From: Eubacteriales bacterium
GTDB taxonomy: Bacteria > Bacillota > Clostridia > Oscillospirales > CAG-272
Length of the DNA: 64,000 nucleotides
Assembly (NCBI GenBank): GCA_045645405.1
Contig: JAZRIQ010000044.1
Coordinates: 12,152 to 76,151 of the forward strand
Direction: 5' to 3'
Position numbers and translations under genes: made by a program. The notes below the pieces were generated by a model. That model ran no database searches, had not been told where the DNA came from, and saw only the letters and a program-made list of their open reading frames with translations. This document shows positions 8,527-60,142 of the stretch, in pieces. Within the stretch, counting starts at the first letter, position 1. Each line of letters begins with the position of its first letter.

Positions 8527-8566
8527 GCCGTCAGCCGTTAGCCGTCAGCCGTTAGCAAGATTTGAT
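8527..8566 (+). repeat. Solo heptamer-repeat arm (copy A)
   Basis: Reads GCCGTCA GCCGTTA GCCGTCA GCCGTTA then GCAAGATTTGATTATTGAT. No partner arm is detected nearby. Confidence 0.75.
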
Positions 8567-8582
8567 TATTGATTTTCTAACC

Positions 8583-8667
8583 CTAATCACGCAAAGCGTG
8601 TATGGAATCAATGCAAAGCGTTGTATGAAATCCGCACGTGGTGCGGTGTGGAATCAACCAAAGATTG
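8583..8667 (+). repeat. Array of four about 22-nt hairpin-plus-linker units
   Basis: Opens with CTAATCACG. The hairpins are CACGC-aaa-GCGTG, CAATGC-aaa-GCGTTG, CCGCAC-gtg-GTGCGG and a weak CAAcc-aaa-gaTTG. Linkers are TATGGAAT, TATGAAAT and TGTGGAAT. Confidence 0.7.
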
Positions 8668-13400: not shown

Positions 13401-14420
13401 TTATCTGTTACCGTACATTCTGTCGTAGTAGTTTTTATATTCTCCGGAAATGATAGTTTCCCACCATTCCTTATTTTCTAAATACCACTTAATTGTAAGC
13501 TCAATTCCGTCTGCAAATTTTGTTTCGGGAAGCCAGCCAAGCTCCCTGTGGATTTTAGTAGGATCAATAGCGTAACGCATATCGTGTCCCTTTCTGTCTG
13601 CCACGTAGGTAATTAAGCTTTCGGGCTTGCCAAGCTTTTTGCAAATCAGCTTTACGATGTCGATGTTTGCCATTTCGTTATGACCGCCAACGTTGTAAAC
13701 CTCACCGATTTTACCGTTATGTATAATCAAATCAATAGCCTTACAGTGGTCGGTTACGTATAGCCAGTCACGAACGTTTTCACCTGTTCCGTAAACAGGA
13801 AGCGGCTTATCGTTAAGCGCGTTTGCAATCATTAAAGGGATAAGCTTTTCAGGAAAATGGTAAGGACCGTAATTGTTTGAGCAACGGCTTATAGTTACGG
13901 GTAAGCCGAAGGTTCTGTGATATGCCAAAACGAGAAGATCAGCGCCCGCCTTAGATGAGCTATACGGTGAGCTTGTGTGAATAGGTGTTTCCTCAGTAAA
14001 GAAAAGGTCGGGACGGTCAAGGGGTAAATCTCCGTAAACCTCGTCTGTTGAAACCTGGTGATAACGGATATTACCGTATTTACGGCAAGCGTCCATTAAA
14101 ACCTGTGTTCCGAGAATATTCGTTTGTAAGAAAACCTCGGGATTTTCAATAGAACGGTCAACGTGGCTCTCTGCCGCAAAGTTTACAACCACATTGGGCT
14201 TTTCGTTCTCGAAAATCTCGTAAATACCTGCTCTGTCGCAGATATTGGTCTTGTAGAACTTAAAATTAGGATTTTCCATAGCGTCCTTAAGAGTTGACAT
14301 ATTGCCTGCATAAGTAAGACAGTCAACGCAAACCACCTTGTAATCCTTATATTTTTCCAGTATATGATAAACGAAGTTTGAGCCTATAAAGCCTGCTCCG
14401 CCGGTTACTAATATCGTCAT
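13401..14420 (-). CDS. rfbB: dTDP-glucose 4,6-dehydratase
   Basis: 339 aa. Motifs ILVTGGAGFIGSNF, YSSSKAGADLL and the HVDRS region. Confidence 0.9.
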   Translation of the reverse strand: MTILVTGGAGFIGSNFVYHILEKYKDYKVVCVDCLTYAGNMSTLKDAMENPNFKFYKTNICDRAGIYEIFENEKPNVVVNFAAESHVDRSIENPEVFLQTNILGTQVLMDACRKYGNIRYHQVSTDEVYGDLPLDRPDLFFTEETPIHTSSPYSSSKAGADLLVLAYHRTFGLPVTISRCSNNYGPYHFPEKLIPLMIANALNDKPLPVYGTGENVRDWLYVTDHCKAIDLIIHNGKIGEVYNVGGHNEMANIDIVKLICKKLGKPESLITYVADRKGHDMRYAIDPTKIHRELGWLPETKFADGIELTIKWYLENKEWWETIISGEYKNYYDRMYGNR

Positions 14421-31976: not shown

Positions 31977-32005
31977 TTGACTTTAGAGAATTTTTGTGCT
32001 ATACT
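31977..32005 (+). promoter_or_regulatory. Promoter of the SCIFF operon
   Basis: Reads TTGACT, 17 nt, TATACT. It ends 35 nt upstream of the scfA ATG. SD GGAGGA lies at about 32026. Confidence 0.55.
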
Positions 32006-32180: not shown

Positions 32181-32188
32181 TTGATTTT

Positions 32189-32216
32189 AAAAAGGCTGCT
32201 ACGAAGCAGCTTTTTT
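32189..32216 (+). terminator. Intra-operon terminator/attenuator after scfA
   Basis: Stem GGCTGCT-acga-AGCAGCT, followed by TTTTTT. Confidence 0.6.
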
Positions 32217-32221
32217 AATTA

Positions 32222-32350
32222 GTGACCGGTGGTCAGTGACTAGTGGTCAGTAATTAGATATTTTTTCAAATTCACAAACGCTATGAAAGGATTGTCAGTT
32301 CGTTTTTAGCAGTCGTAGCTATCTACTAGCCACTAACCACTGACCACTGA
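32222..32350 (+). repeat. Complete heptamer-armed palindromic element (copy B)
   Basis: 5' arm GTGACCG GTGGTCA GTGACTA GTGGTCA GTAATTA GAT. A 61-nt core follows. 3' arm ATCTAC TAGCCAC TAACCAC TGACCAC TGA. Confidence 0.85.
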
Positions 32351-32352
32351 AT

Positions 32353-33735
32353 ATGATACATCAATATAAATTAAACGGCTACAACGTTGTAATCGACGTA
32401 TGCTCCGGAGGAGTACACGTGGTTGACGATATTGCCTACGATATAATAGAAAAATTCGAAAATCAAACACAGGATGCGGTAATTTCGTCGATTTACGGAA
32501 AATACGCGTCTGAAAAGGACGTAACTAAGGAAGAGATTGAAGCTCTTTACAATGAAATTTTAGGAATGAAAAAAGCAGGTCAGCTTTTTACTCCCGACAC
32601 CTTTGAGCCAATGGCAGACAAGCTTAAGCAAAAGACCTCGGGCGTTATTAAAGCTCTGTGCCTGCACGTGGCTCATACCTGCAACTTAAATTGCTCCTAC
32701 TGCTTTGCTTCACAGGGCAAATATCACGGTGAAAGAGCAATAATGTCTTTAGACGTGGCTAAAAGAGCCCTTGATTTCTTAATTGAAAATTCCGGCACGC
32801 GCCGCAATTTGGAGGTTGACTTCTTCGGCGGAGAGCCGCTTATGAATTTTCAAATGCTCAAGGATTTAGTTAAATATGCAAGAGAAATCGAAAAGAAGCA
32901 CAACAAAAATTTCCGTTTTACTCTTACGACAAACGGAGTTCTTATTGACGATGACGTAATTGATTTTGCCAACCGTGAAATGAGCAACGTTGTCCTCAGC
33001 CTTGACGGCCGAAAAGAAGTTCACGACAGATACAGGGTAGACTATGCAGGCAACGGAAGCTGGGAGAAAATCGTTCCCAAGTTCCAAAAGCTTGTTGATG
33101 CACGCGGCGGCAAAAACTACTATATGCGCGGCACCTTCACTCACGCAAACCCTGACTTTTTAGAGGATATTAAGGTCATGCTTGACCTTGGCTTTAATGA
33201 GCTTTCAATGGAGCCTGTAGTTTGCGCAAAGGGTGACAAGGAGGAATTAACCGAGGCTGATTTTCCTATCGTTTGTCAGCAGTACGAGGAGCTTGCAAAA
33301 TTGATGCTTAAAAAAGATAAGGAAAAGAAGCCGTTTACATTCTATCACTATATGATTGACCTGAAGGGCGGCCCCTGTATCTATAAAAGAATATCCGGCT
33401 GCGGCTCAGGAACAGAATATATGGCTGTTACTCCTTGGGGCGACCTTTACCCCTGCCACCAGTTCGTAGGCGAGGAAAAATACAAGCTTGGCGACATTTA
33501 TAACGGTGTTACAAACAAGGAGGCTCAAAATGAATTTGCTTCCTGCAACGTTTATGCCCGTCCCGACTGTAAGGATTGCTGGGCAAAGCTATATTGCTCC
33601 GGCGGATGCGCGGCAAACGCTTACCACGCAACAGGCTCTGTAAGAGGCGTATATAAATACGGCTGTGAGCTGTTCAAAAAGCGTATGGAATGCGCAATAA
33701 TGGTTGCAGCAGCCAGAGCATTAGAGGAAAACTAA
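32353..33735 (+). CDS. scfB: SCIFF radical-SAM/SPASM thioether-forming maturase
   Basis: 460 aa. N-terminus MIHQYKLNGYNVVIDV. The radical-SAM motif is CNLNCSYC, and the C-terminal region is Cys-rich and SPASM-like (CGSG...CxxCWAKLYCSGGC). Confidence 0.9.
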   Translation: MIHQYKLNGYNVVIDVCSGGVHVVDDIAYDIIEKFENQTQDAVISSIYGKYASEKDVTKEEIEALYNEILGMKKAGQLFTPDTFEPMADKLKQKTSGVIKALCLHVAHTCNLNCSYCFASQGKYHGERAIMSLDVAKRALDFLIENSGTRRNLEVDFFGGEPLMNFQMLKDLVKYAREIEKKHNKNFRFTLTTNGVLIDDDVIDFANREMSNVVLSLDGRKEVHDRYRVDYAGNGSWEKIVPKFQKLVDARGGKNYYMRGTFTHANPDFLEDIKVMLDLGFNELSMEPVVCAKGDKEELTEADFPIVCQQYEELAKLMLKKDKEKKPFTFYHYMIDLKGGPCIYKRISGCGSGTEYMAVTPWGDLYPCHQFVGEEKYKLGDIYNGVTNKEAQNEFASCNVYARPDCKDCWAKLYCSGGCAANAYHATGSVRGVYKYGCELFKKRMECAIMVAAARALEEN

Positions 33736-41418: not shown

Positions 41419-41441
41419 AAGCGACTAAAAGGAGTATATTT

Positions 41442-46240: not shown

Positions 46241-46356
46241 CACTAATCACGATGTTGCCGTTGGCAAATGAAGTTGAGCTACGCTCAAATGAAGTTGTCC
46301 TTTCGGACAAATGAAGTCGCTACGCGAATGATGTTGAGGCTACGCCTCAAATGGGA
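46241..46356 (+). repeat. Array of five about 21-nt hairpin-plus-linker units
   Basis: Opens with CACTAATCACG. The hairpins are TTGCC-gtt-GGCAA, TGAGC-tac-GCTCA, TGTCC-tttc-GGACA, CGC-tac-GCG and TGAGGC-tac-GCCTCA. Linkers are ATGAAGT or AATGAAGT (three times), AATGATGT (once), then a terminal AATGGGA. Confidence 0.8.
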
Positions 46357-47845: not shown

Positions 47846-47850
47846 AAATT

Positions 47851-47869
47851 CCTTTCGCTTTGCGGAAGG
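47851..47869 (-). promoter_or_regulatory. Hairpin overlapping the pyrB ribosome-binding site
   Basis: The minus-strand RNA reads CCUUCCGC-aaa-GCGAAAGG-AAUUU-AUG. The 3' half of the 8-bp stem carries the only SD-like sequence (GAAAGGA). Confidence 0.45.
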
Positions 47870-47872
47870 ATA

Positions 47873-48028: not shown

Positions 48029-48679
48029 TTACGCTCCGTAAACCTCACGATACTTCTTAATTCTTGCAACGTTTTCAGCGTTTGCCGGGTCCTCTTCAAG
48101 GTACTCGATAATGTCGTAAACGTCAACAACTGAGTAAACAGGGAAGCCGAATTCCTCTTCAAGCTCAACCATTGCGCCCTTTTCGCCCTGACCCTTTTCC
48201 TTACGGTCAACCATTACGAAGCAAGCCGCAACCTTTACGCCATCAAGTCCCTTCATAATTTCCATTGTTTCACGAATAGCTGTTCCCGCTGTGATAACGT
48301 CCTCAACGATTACAACCTCCTCGCCTGATTGTGGCTTGTAGCCTACGAATACACCACCCTCGCCGTGGTCCTTAGCTTCCTTTCTGTTAAAGAAGAATGG
48401 CACGTCAAGACCGTTCTTTGAAAGTGCGATTGATGATGAAACTGCAATTGAAATACCTTTGTATGCAGGGCCAAACAATGCAGTACGCTTGTTACCTACC
48501 TTGTCAAGGTATGCCTTAGCATAGAATTCGCCAAGCTTAGCAATATGCTCGCCTGTCTTAATTTCGCCTGCGTTAATGAAATATGGGATTTTTCTACCGC
48601 TCTTTGCAGTAAAATCACCAAACTTTAATACACCTGCGCTTTGTAAAAACTGTATAAATTCTCTTTTGTATTGTTCCAT
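48029..48679 (-). CDS. pyrE: Orotate phosphoribosyltransferase
   Basis: 216 aa. Contains FGDFTAKSGRKIPYFIN and the PRPP loop VVIVEDVITAGTA. Confidence 0.9.
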   Translation of the reverse strand: MEQYKREFIQFLQSAGVLKFGDFTAKSGRKIPYFINAGEIKTGEHIAKLGEFYAKAYLDKVGNKRTALFGPAYKGISIAVSSSIALSKNGLDVPFFFNRKEAKDHGEGGVFVGYKPQSGEEVVIVEDVITAGTAIRETMEIMKGLDGVKVAACFVMVDRKEKGQGEKGAMVELEEEFGFPVYSVVDVYDIIEYLEEDPANAENVARIKKYREVYGA

Positions 48680-48691
48680 GATATTTCACAA

Positions 48692-48855
48692 GTGGTCAGT
48701 GTTCAGTGATCAGTGGTCAGCAATTTGCTTTTTGCCCACTTACAATAAACACACACTTACTCCTATTTAATATTTTCTTTTATTTCGATATAATCGTTAG
48801 TCTAGCCATCTGATCACTGACCACTGACGGCTGACCGCTGACGGCTGACCGCTGA
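48692..48855 (-). repeat. Complete heptamer-armed palindromic element (copy G), pyrF-pyrE gap
   Basis: On the plus strand: GTGGTCA GTGTTCA GTGATCA GTGGTCA GCAATTTGC, then the core, then TAATCGTTAG TC TAGCCATC TGATCAC TGACCAC TGACGGC TGACCGC TGACGGC TGACCGC TGA. Confidence 0.88.
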
Positions 48856-48863
48856 TGAATTCG

Positions 48864-59942: not shown

Positions 59943-59971
59943 ATTTTAAGCGTGATATACTCTCTACATAA
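59943..59971 (+). promoter_or_regulatory. Promoter upstream of the lysine riboswitch
   Basis: Reads TTGACA, 17 nt, TATACT. Confidence 0.6.
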
Positions 59972-59981
59972 AAATAGAGGT

Positions 59982-60126
59982 TGCGGATATTATGATAAAC
60001 GCAGACAGGGCTAAGGTCTGCGCGGTAAAGGAATGTCCGCCGAAAGTATGCTTTTTCCCAAGGAAGCATATTTGGGGATTGCGAGAATATCGCAATAACT
60101 GTCACCAACACGGTGGAGTGCTATTA
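59982..60126 (+). promoter_or_regulatory. Lysine riboswitch (L-box) aptamer
   Basis: It contains the L-box landmarks in order. These are AUAGAGGUUGCG (5' P1/P2), GUCCGCCGAAAG, UUUGGGG, the AUUGCGA-gaau-AUCGCAAU stem, and AACUGUCACC-aacac-GGUGGAGUGCUAU (3' P1). Confidence 0.8.
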
Positions 60127-60142
60127 AAGGTTATGATTTTTT

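Follow-up and report, generated by a model that had tools for sequence, protein, structure and literature searches.

A heptamer-armed hairpin at the Shine-Dalgarno-less start of a SCIFF maturase gene, and its likely origin as a gene-less PF05635-type cassette

How is a gene translated if its start codon is not preceded by a Shine-Dalgarno sequence (SD) and directly follows the arm of a large hairpin? The question is raised by scfA and scfB, the genes for a SCIFF precursor peptide and its radical S-adenosylmethionine/SPASM maturase, in an uncultured gut bacterium of the Eubacteriales (Clostridia; Oscillospirales; CAG-272). We analysed a stretch of 64,000 nucleotides that carries both genes (the window; contig JAZRIQ010000044.1 of assembly GCA_045645405.1, positions 12,152 to 76,151). 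The source genome, G000, comprises 2.05 Mb in 46 contigs with 38.8% GC; in what follows G-numbers denote the genomes compared, L-numbers the compared loci or contigs, and C contigs. The two genes are a SCIFF ranthipeptide pair, with a TIGR03973 precursor beside a TIGR03974 maturase and both scores above the cut-offs. Between them lie a transcription terminator and a heptamer-armed hairpin, copy B, whose right (R) arm ends about 2–4 nt before the scfB ATG at 32353 (its last paired base is 32349; Table 1). This arrangement, and the reading of copy B as an insertion-type repeat, had been described in an initial annotation made from the letters of the window alone, and both hold. With slightly better than even confidence, we propose that a gene-less cassette displaced the ancestral SD of scfB, and that the same ATG is still used, independently of an SD and with a low output of maturase.

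The lack of an SD is evident from duplex energies with the anti-SD. The GGAGGA upstream of scfA gives −9.5 kcal/mol and the 20 nt upstream of the scfB ATG give +0.4 kcal/mol, in agreement with the initial annotation, which saw no SD here. The scfB start thus ranks in the bottom 2–5% of the genome for SD strength. In a reference set of 109 long open reading frames (ORFs) of G000 with an unambiguous ATG, 81% have a core SD and 94% reach −4 kcal/mol or lower; energies above −2.5 kcal/mol occur in 4.6% and energies of at least 0 in 1.8%. In a cruder census of 1448 ORFs in the same genome, 58% of first starts have the core motif, versus 10% of internal control codons.

The ATG itself is the true start, as had been presumed from the N-terminus of the protein. 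Residue 2 of ScfB aligns with position 1 of the TIGR03974 profile, and the orthologues all begin with M(I/V)HQ(Y/F)K. Among 12 sequences of the subclade that bears heptamer arrays, 19 of the 21 codons from 2 to 22 vary, 16 of them solely synonymously, and amino-acid changes are limited to I/V at three codons. Because these codons change almost only synonymously, the N-terminus must be translated from the ATG at 32353. One could argue that scfB is truly initiated at the GTG of codon 23 (32419) and that the annotated N-terminus is never made. A GGAGGA lies six bases upstream of this GTG (−9.5 kcal/mol), and gene callers took the equivalent GTG in four sister contigs, which yields products of 437–438 aa. 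The combination of GGA-GGA and GTG is unique to G000, however: other species without an SD have GGT GGC or similar codons there and GTA, GTT or GCT at codon 23. A start at codon 23 would also leave unexplained the strong purifying selection on codons 2–22 and the extent of the profile, and would remove the first strand of the peptide-recognition domain. We therefore reject this hardly credible start and regard the SD-like sequence as a coding coincidence. Nor do the orthologues use some other start preceded by an SD, the outcome by which the initial annotation would have stood corrected.

Comparison with relatives indicates that the SD was lost. We compared 24 other genomes, namely 16 array-free species of the same genus and members of other families. 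In all of them scfB starts at the same M(I/V)HQ(Y/F)K codon, and the spacer between scfA and scfB measures 65–123 nt in 22 genomes, 241 nt in one and is missing in another. The terminator stands in the same position in all relatives examined; in the array-free ones it is followed by a short stretch and an SD, such as ACGAGGTAAT-ATG or GAAAGGATTTTTT-ATG. The short spacer with an SD is what the initial annotation had expected of related genomes. Metagenomes provided another 33 distinct scfA-scfB intergenic regions of 53–244 nt (mostly 53–112 nt), almost all with an SD and none with arrays of the AGYNGYY type. Exact-protein look-ups with ScfB and the neighbouring peptidyl-prolyl isomerase returned no record. 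Since relatives keep an SD at the same start, its loss at scfB is derived in G000. Judged from these sequences, the loss is real, derived and, as described below, recurrent at other genes.

What has taken the place of the SD? The left (F) arm of copy B consists of the heptamers AGTGACC, GGTGGTC, AGTGACT, AGTGGTC, AGTAATT and AGATATT and has TTAGATATTT at its inner end. Folded alone, copy B has a minimum free energy of −44.1 kcal/mol (z = −4.8), which none of 200 shuffled sequences matches; folded together with the terminator it reaches −61 kcal/mol (z = −5.9). The predicted stem is interrupted by bulges (12 + 7 + 4 + 3 bp), and G-U pairs make only a small difference between the strands (−43.7 vs −41.0 kcal/mol), too little to speak for or against selection at the RNA level. 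At Rfam gathering thresholds the window has no match at copy B and no rRNA; its only match is a lysine riboswitch (RF00168, 87.5 bits) at 59967–60131.

The F side of copy B aligns, through its inner TTAGATATTT, to a full-length cassette on another contig of the same genome (C12:13825–14315). This cassette has a left arm (CAGTGGTCAGTGGTCAGTAGTCAGGAGTTAG; 13825–13860) and a right arm (14280–14315) of the same AGTGGTC class as copy B. Between the arms lies the best scoring (13941–14258, 136 bits) of the seven genes for PF05635, the “23S rRNA IVS protein” (IVS, intervening sequence), in G000. In G075, G038 and G076, members of three further families of the order, genes of this high-scoring subtype (128–138 bits) likewise lie between inverted heptamer arrays. 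Copy B shares with these cassettes the inverted arms that form a long stem, the tandem 7-base units and the presence of a full-length copy of its class in the genome. It contains no PF05635 ORF: the loop of about 50 nt has a single small ORF of 8 codons. A 23S rRNA IVS in the strict sense sits in helix 25 or 45 of 23S rRNA, whereas copy B lies between scfA and scfB. By its arms and units, copy B is therefore best described as a gene-less, non-rRNA member of the family of heptamer-armed PF05635/IVS-type cassettes, an identity that the initial annotation had not recognised.

Two further observations concern cassettes of this kind. First, four other PF05635 genes of G000 (C22:72200–72400, C36:15770–15970, C29:8030–8230 and C9:4850–5047) have no heptamer arms. 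They are preceded by a mini-hairpin and ATGAAGT/CTTCAT linker arrays, as found at positions 46241–46356 and 8527–8667 of the window, an indication that PF05635 cassettes comprise both types of repeat. Second, in a cassette of G075 (C53:28240–28690, L195), the upstream stop codon is merged into the first heptamer (..TTG TAG TTGTTAG..), and the arms are of two classes, AGTTGTT/AGTGGTT and CCCCGTC.

In G000 the family is large. We count 59 arrays of at least 3 units, versus none in a shuffled genome, and 20 matches to a two-unit pattern in the window, where 0.03 are expected. The left arm always reads (AGYNGYY)n and the right arm its complement. Pairing arms within 260 nt yields 15 hairpins in the order F..R and none in the order R..F. 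Loops differ between copies, and on their outer sides the elements abut stop codons, terminators or ribosome-binding sites (RBSs). Several contigs of G000 end inside arrays (C8:25–59, C12:15535–15569, C18:1–33, C43:32567–32587 and C5:29830–29857). As the repeats break the assembly, the copy numbers for G000 are underestimates. We considered and rejected the idea that the elements are transposon-derived miniature inverted-repeat elements: no target-site duplications are seen at the outer flanks of 15 copies, and the two arms at L033 are of non-complementary classes. A likeness of the arm units to the 3′ tail of 16S rRNA (GAUCAC) is only a 6-mer and was put down to chance; the assembly contains no 16S gene.

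Arrays of four units occur in only three of 31 relatives, G000, G002 and G007. In a sample of 301 genomes of the order, G000 has 63 matches and G075 has 83, four others show traces, and the rest have none. This narrow and scattered distribution indicates that the expansion is young and patchy.

The distribution is also relevant to the idea that the hairpins are REP/REPIN-type elements (repetitive extragenic palindromic sequences) mobilised by a RAYT, a REP-associated tyrosine transposase. Like REPINs, the elements are paired inverted repeats between genes that fold into hairpins, are restricted to particular lineages and number tens of copies in a genome. A RAYT-like gene (NF047646, 77.6 bits) occurs among the 31 relatives in exactly the three genomes with arrays; in G000 it lies at C11:82133–82885 and encodes a tyrosine transposase with a C-terminal helix-turn-helix. 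These three genomes form one clade, so that the co-occurrence counts as a single event, and the score falls below the curated cut-off of 80. In none of the three do arrays flank the gene, and G075, with 83 array matches, has no homologue of it. Moreover, tandem-heptamer arms and locus-specific loops are unlike those of REPINs. We consider a REPIN/RAYT origin highly improbable and reject it, since the gene is unflanked by arrays and absent from array-rich G075.

Within the subclade the spacer between scfA and scfB is hypervariable. Sister contigs were those found to encode an identical ScfA by exact-protein look-up; they stand at the level of sister species, with 80–87% nucleotide identity in scfB. 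In these contigs and in G007 (C268; locus L145) the spacers measure 126–329 nt and have almost nothing in common beyond the terminator and a GAAAGGA(A/T) motif near the middle. Arms of the AGTGGTC/AGCCGTC class are present in the window and in L031, L032/L038, L034, L037, L039 and G007. L035 has arms of a GGATGTA/CCTATCC class, as is one arm of L033, whose two arms belong to different classes. L002 has a solo right arm, and L036 and L040 have no recognisable arms. The junction CCACTGAAT-ATG is common to G000, L031, L032 and L038. The longest spacer, the 329 nt of L145, is composed of a heptamer hairpin, four mini-hairpins joined by a GATATAT linker, a CCCTATC array and an SD module. Between L002 and L040 scfB is 99% and scfA 100% identical, and the spacers are unrelated, the terminator stem included. 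With genes nearly identical and spacers unrelated, this points to a spacer that is swapped by recombination and does not merely drift.

Only four variants of the subclade have an SD at scfB. In L035 and G007 it is CGACTGAAAGGAG-N5-ATG. In L037 and L039 it reads TTCCTTTCGC-NNN-GCGAAAGGAA-TTTT-ATG, and a hairpin of −8 to −13.6 kcal/mol is predicted to sequester it.

The element that persists through these changes is GAAAGGA. Of the 12 distinct intergenic regions that the subclade has at the scfB locus, 11 contain it (it is missing only from L035 and degenerate in L039). In L002, L031–L040 and L145 the form GAAAGGA(A/T)(T/C)G is kept in the loop while its surroundings change. In the window, GAAAGGA is absent from the loops of the other copies of the element. 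It may be the remnant of a stranded ancestral scfB SD, or a functional site. In the latter case the loop might act as a ribosome standby site or long-range SD, on which the 30S subunit loads before sliding to the AUG when the R arm breathes. The retention of the motif amid complete change of arms and loop would fit such a role, as would the fact that GAAAGGA is the functional SD of scfB in L008, L037 and L039. The motif lies about 61 nt from the AUG, though, at the far end of a stem of about 26 bp, and is itself partly paired in the predicted fold. Shared ancestry over short distances suffices to explain its retention, and we consider a standby site very unlikely.

How, then, would scfB be expressed if our preferred reading, SD displacement by a gene-less cassette, is correct? 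In a young sub-lineage of a gut Clostridia genus, the family would have spread into many intergenic gaps and taken them up, beginning at the stop codon or terminator and reaching as far as the following RBS. Copy B fills the stretch from the conserved terminator to the conserved scfB ATG, from which the ancestral SD would have been displaced. On the + strand a consensus scan finds a single good promoter-like site upstream of scfA. The same kind of scan finds none inside copy B, where the loop offers TTGTCA with no usable −10 hexamer in any variant. scfB would be transcribed by read-through of the scfA terminator, which, with an A-run as well as a T-run, is bidirectional in appearance. In the read-through RNA, positions −20 to −3 are predicted to be locked in the stem of −44 kcal/mol. 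The predicted probability of being unpaired for positions −20 to −1 is 0.20 at scfB versus 0.35–0.83 in relatives; it is 0.35–0.5 at the AUG and 0.7 at +4 to +20, which is fairly open. Initiation would be independent of an SD at this A/U-rich start (AAU AUG AUA CAU CAA UAU AAA), and weak beside the helix.

Alternatively, RNase III may cut the stem. The 23S IVSs of Coxiella, Salmonella and Leptospira are cut mid-stem by this enzyme (PMC4990558), which G000 encodes (TIGR02191, 249 bits). By analogy, a cut in copy B would leave scfB with a short single-stranded leader and would separate its message from the stable scfA message. By either route the maturase-to-precursor ratio would be lower than in congeners.

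In operons for ribosomally synthesized and post-translationally modified peptides (RiPPs), attenuation works through a terminator between the precursor and the enzyme gene. The scfA-scfB locus resembles this arrangement in the putatively leaky terminator between peptide gene and maturase, which is conserved in every scfA-scfB locus examined. It differs from the usual case in that copy B adds a second, much larger hairpin without a U-tract, and in that the SD of the maturase gene is removed. It is plausible that terminator and hairpin together set the precursor-to-maturase ratio.

Another route, which the initial annotation had mentioned, is coupling. Ribosomes that terminate on a small upstream ORF, at the TGA two bases ahead of the ATG, could reinitiate on scfB. 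The R arm does place stops in all three frames just before the ATG (TAG at 32327, TAA at 32334, TGA at 32341 and 32348), and in L031, L032 and L038 a 20-codon ORF (MKGLSVRF...) ends at that TGA. In the window, on the other hand, no ORF with a start codon ends at 32348–32350: the MKGLSVRF ORF, which lacks an SD, already stops at 32309. The end of scfA lies 172 nt and two hairpins upstream. Coupling is thus excluded as a route to scfB in the window, and we assign it next to no probability.

Is scfB an isolated case? We curated by hand a set of about 20 credible genes of G000 that start no more than 40 nt from a right-type array. Five of 20 have no SD (energies above −2.5 kcal/mol): scfB, pyrE, lysA, tsaD and the gene for a 349-aa zinc-ribbon protein. 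The corresponding count in the reference set is 5 of 109, so that SD-less starts are enriched beside arrays (odds ratio 6.9, p = 0.008). They are not a general property of genes behind elements.

The parallel with pyrE had been drawn by the initial annotation and is confirmed. The pyrE ATG (48679, minus strand) lies 12 nt from an R-type arm, that of copy G; the upstream sequence ..CACTTGTGAAATATC gives −2.1 kcal/mol. Every array-free congener has an SD at pyrE, of −6.6 to −11.4 kcal/mol. Only G000 and G007 are without one, and the junction with the arm is conserved between the two, so here too the loss is derived. Taking pyrE and tsaD together, the start is unchanged in every array-free congener and has an SD of −5.9 to −11.4 kcal/mol. 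At lysA the N-terminus itself has been remodelled by the array in G000 and G007. In congeners the start (MNC...) lies a few codons further upstream and is preceded by a recognisable SD, for example GAAAGGAG; we judged this SD by reading the sequences, as the computed energies for lysA refer to the start of the tblastn alignment and not to the MNC ATG. In G000 (C40:12596–12615) the ancestral ATGAAT... abuts the arm and is now out of frame. The remnant forms a mini-ORF of three codons, ATG AAT TTA TGA, whose stop overlaps the new ATG (ATGA).

These genes also bear on an explanation in which the R arm (heptamers of the CCACUGA type) or the whole hairpin is a required positive signal, bound by a protein or the ribosome in place of an SD. 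Genes behind bare arms would then depend on the element for their translation, one of the possibilities raised by the initial annotation. In four housekeeping genes, the essential tsaD among them, the SD has disappeared at just the place where an arm adjoins the start, and their junctions can be conserved, at pyrE in G007 and at scfB in L031, L032 and L038. The enrichment of SD-less starts beside arrays points the same way. There is also a precedent: MacGregor (2015; PMC4679880) described TAACTGA direct repeats in marine Beggiatoaceae, some Cyanobacteria and Bacteroidetes, where heptamer arrays abut SD-less starts, and proposed a translational role; the units here (TRACNRC) differ from TAACTGA by 1–2 bases. 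Most arms in G000, however, precede an ordinary SD or an SD module. In sister species the arms at scfB may be of another class, single or lacking, and in each case an SD may be present or absent, so that there is no constant relation between arm and start. The R arm is predicted to be paired rather than displayed in the read-through RNA, and it has no complementarity to the anti-SD. We consider an activating arm quite unlikely.

As to the remaining genes behind elements, most of them appear to receive their SD from the element. In the C12 cassette the PF05635 gene has GGCTGACCACTaATTCGACCGAAGGGAG-aactt-ATG as its own RBS, which is repeated after the right arm, before the downstream host gene, as GGCTGACCACTtATTCGACCGAAGGGAG-aaaaca-ATG. 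The 13-mer CGACTGAAAGGAG, which resembles the RBS of the PF05635 gene, occurs seven times in G000 with at most one mismatch, in six cases directly after an array and 4–8 nt before a start codon. Exact copies number 5 in G000, 9 in G002 and 15 in G007, with one in 28 other genomes. A second module, present at three loci of G000, is the palindromic hairpin TTCCTTYCGC-NNN-GCGAAAGGAA, located 3–4 nt before the ATG, which is predicted to sequester the SD (−8 to −13.6 kcal/mol). Copy B has neither module; sister species carry them at scfB. Recombination between two copies of arm end plus RBS (direct repeat GGCTGACCACTnATTCGACCGAAGGGAG) would remove the PF05635 gene, so that only a hairpin without a gene is left. 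The likeness of the first module to the cassette's own RBS suggests a route by which a selfish cassette could become the RBS of a host gene.

Table 1. Positions of the features discussed (window coordinates unless a contig is given)
Feature	Position	Strand	Remarks
Promoter-like site for scfA, TTGACT-17-TATACT with TG extension	31977..32005	+	consensus scan, 10/12 matches
scfA, SCIFF precursor peptide, 46 aa	32040..32180	+	TIGR03973, 78.9 bits, cut-off 50
Intrinsic terminator	32187..32218	+	14-bp stem 32187-32200/32205-32218, GC core, then six T
Copy B, heptamer-armed hairpin element	32221..32350	+	between scfA terminator and scfB ATG
Copy B, F arm	32221..32262	+	six AGYNGYY heptamers, last two degenerate
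Copy B, loop	32263..32313	+	about 50 nt, contains GAAAGGA at 32285-32291
Copy B, R arm	32314..32350	+	..ATCTACT AGCCACT AACCACT GACCACT GA
scfB, SCIFF radical-SAM/SPASM maturase, 460 aa	32353..33735	+	TIGR03974, 749.6 bits
In-frame GGAGGA-N6-GTG, scfB codons 19-23	32407..32421	+	GTG at 32419; SD-like coding coincidence
pyrE, orotate phosphoribosyltransferase	48029..48679	-	TIGR00336; no SD
Copy G, heptamer-armed hairpin upstream of pyrE	48691..48856		arms 48691-48727 and 48805-48856
CGACTGAAAGGAG sites	G000 C5:10404-10416, C6:6333-6345, C12:11741-11753, C3:4661-4673, C32:9610-9622; window 41421-41434		
SD-sequestering hairpin sites	window 47848-47871 (C44:60000-60022); G000 C5:24671, C5:26029; L037, L039		always directly after an array

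Several points weigh against the reading that we prefer, the displacement of the scfB SD by a gene-less cassette with weak initiation at the old ATG. First, about three quarters of the element-adjacent genes keep or receive an SD, often from the element itself, so that a start without an SD may simply be an accident that is tolerated rather than a setting that was designed. Second, copy B has no PF05635 gene, lies outside rRNA and has a bulged stem, and cutting by RNase III is argued by analogy only. Third, Clostridia depend strongly on SDs, so that one would not expect initiation to be efficient without an SD and next to a stable helix. Fourth, the essential gene tsaD has the same layout, so the arm could have a positive role. 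Finally, the reading leaves the conservation of GAAAGGA in the loop without explanation.

Heptamer repeats close to genes have been described before. The closest known relatives of copy B are the 23S IVSs with an S23p/PF05635 ORF in Coxiella burnetii, Leptospira and Salmonella (PMC4990558). They also have terminal inverted repeats that form a long stem (28 bp in Coxiella), and tandem heptamers in the arm next to the ORF start, where those of Coxiella (GACAGAT, before the S23p start) vary in number between strains (PMC4990558). Their full-length copies enclose the gene for a four-helix bundle, as do those on C12 and in G075, G038 and G076, and the stem of copy B appears to be of the kind that RNase III cuts. 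Unlike them, copy B has no ORF, lies between protein-coding genes and has overwritten an SD, and its sister copies carry SD modules.

The TAACTGA repeats of Beggiatoaceae (PMC4679880) are similar in a different respect. They are sense-oriented, stop-rich arrays that end a few bases before mostly SD-less starts, housekeeping genes included, as copy B ends a few nucleotides before an SD-less start, and the units are similar (here TAACTGC, TGACCAC and TAACGGC). They are, however, direct repeats predicted to be unstructured, in a host where about 25% of genes have an SD. The ACTRRCC/TGACCAC units of copy B are paired in the 3′ arm of a hairpin, in a host where about 80–95% of genes have an SD, and the loss of the SD is demonstrably derived from SD-bearing orthologues. 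The short tandemly repeated repetitive (STRR) heptamers of Nostoc and other cyanobacteria and the GGGNATC repeats of Xanthomonas are likewise intergenic, variable in copy number and close to starts; their suspected effects on transcription or translation are unproven (bioRxiv 10.1101/2022.06.06.494920; PMC4692102). Their units differ from those here, most form direct arrays or G-quadruplexes, and neither an association with PF05635 cassettes nor the replacement of an SD has been reported for them.

Reports of heptamers near starts, in cyanobacteria, Beggiatoaceae and the Coxiella IVS, reach back decades and offer no explanation, and most of the reported hosts use few SDs. Hence, it was unclear whether such repeats had ever replaced a working RBS. 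Because the host studied here depends on SDs and array-free congeners keep theirs, replacement can be demonstrated at four genes: scfB, pyrE, tsaD and lysA. New in our analysis are this demonstrable replacement of the SD in an SD-dependent Firmicute, the RBS modules borne by the cassettes, and a natural allelic series at scfB.

A more general proposal, which we regard as unlikely at present, is that IVS-like cassettes are mobile and rewrite the translation-initiation regions of an SD-dependent Firmicute. Having landed between a stop codon or terminator and the following start, they would either install an RBS module or strip the SD, and cleavage of the arms by RNase III would uncouple cistrons. 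If this were true, scfB, pyrE, tsaD and lysA would be translated from processed mRNAs with short leaders or with the help of a factor that binds the arm, and the switching at scfB between no SD, the first and the second module would be an element-driven tuning of operon stoichiometry. The scfB locus offers a compact natural series in front of one conserved gene: the SD may be missing, open within a module or sequestered within a module, and there may be a single arm or none. This series bears on SD-independent initiation in Firmicutes and on the control of the ratio between RiPP precursor and enzyme.

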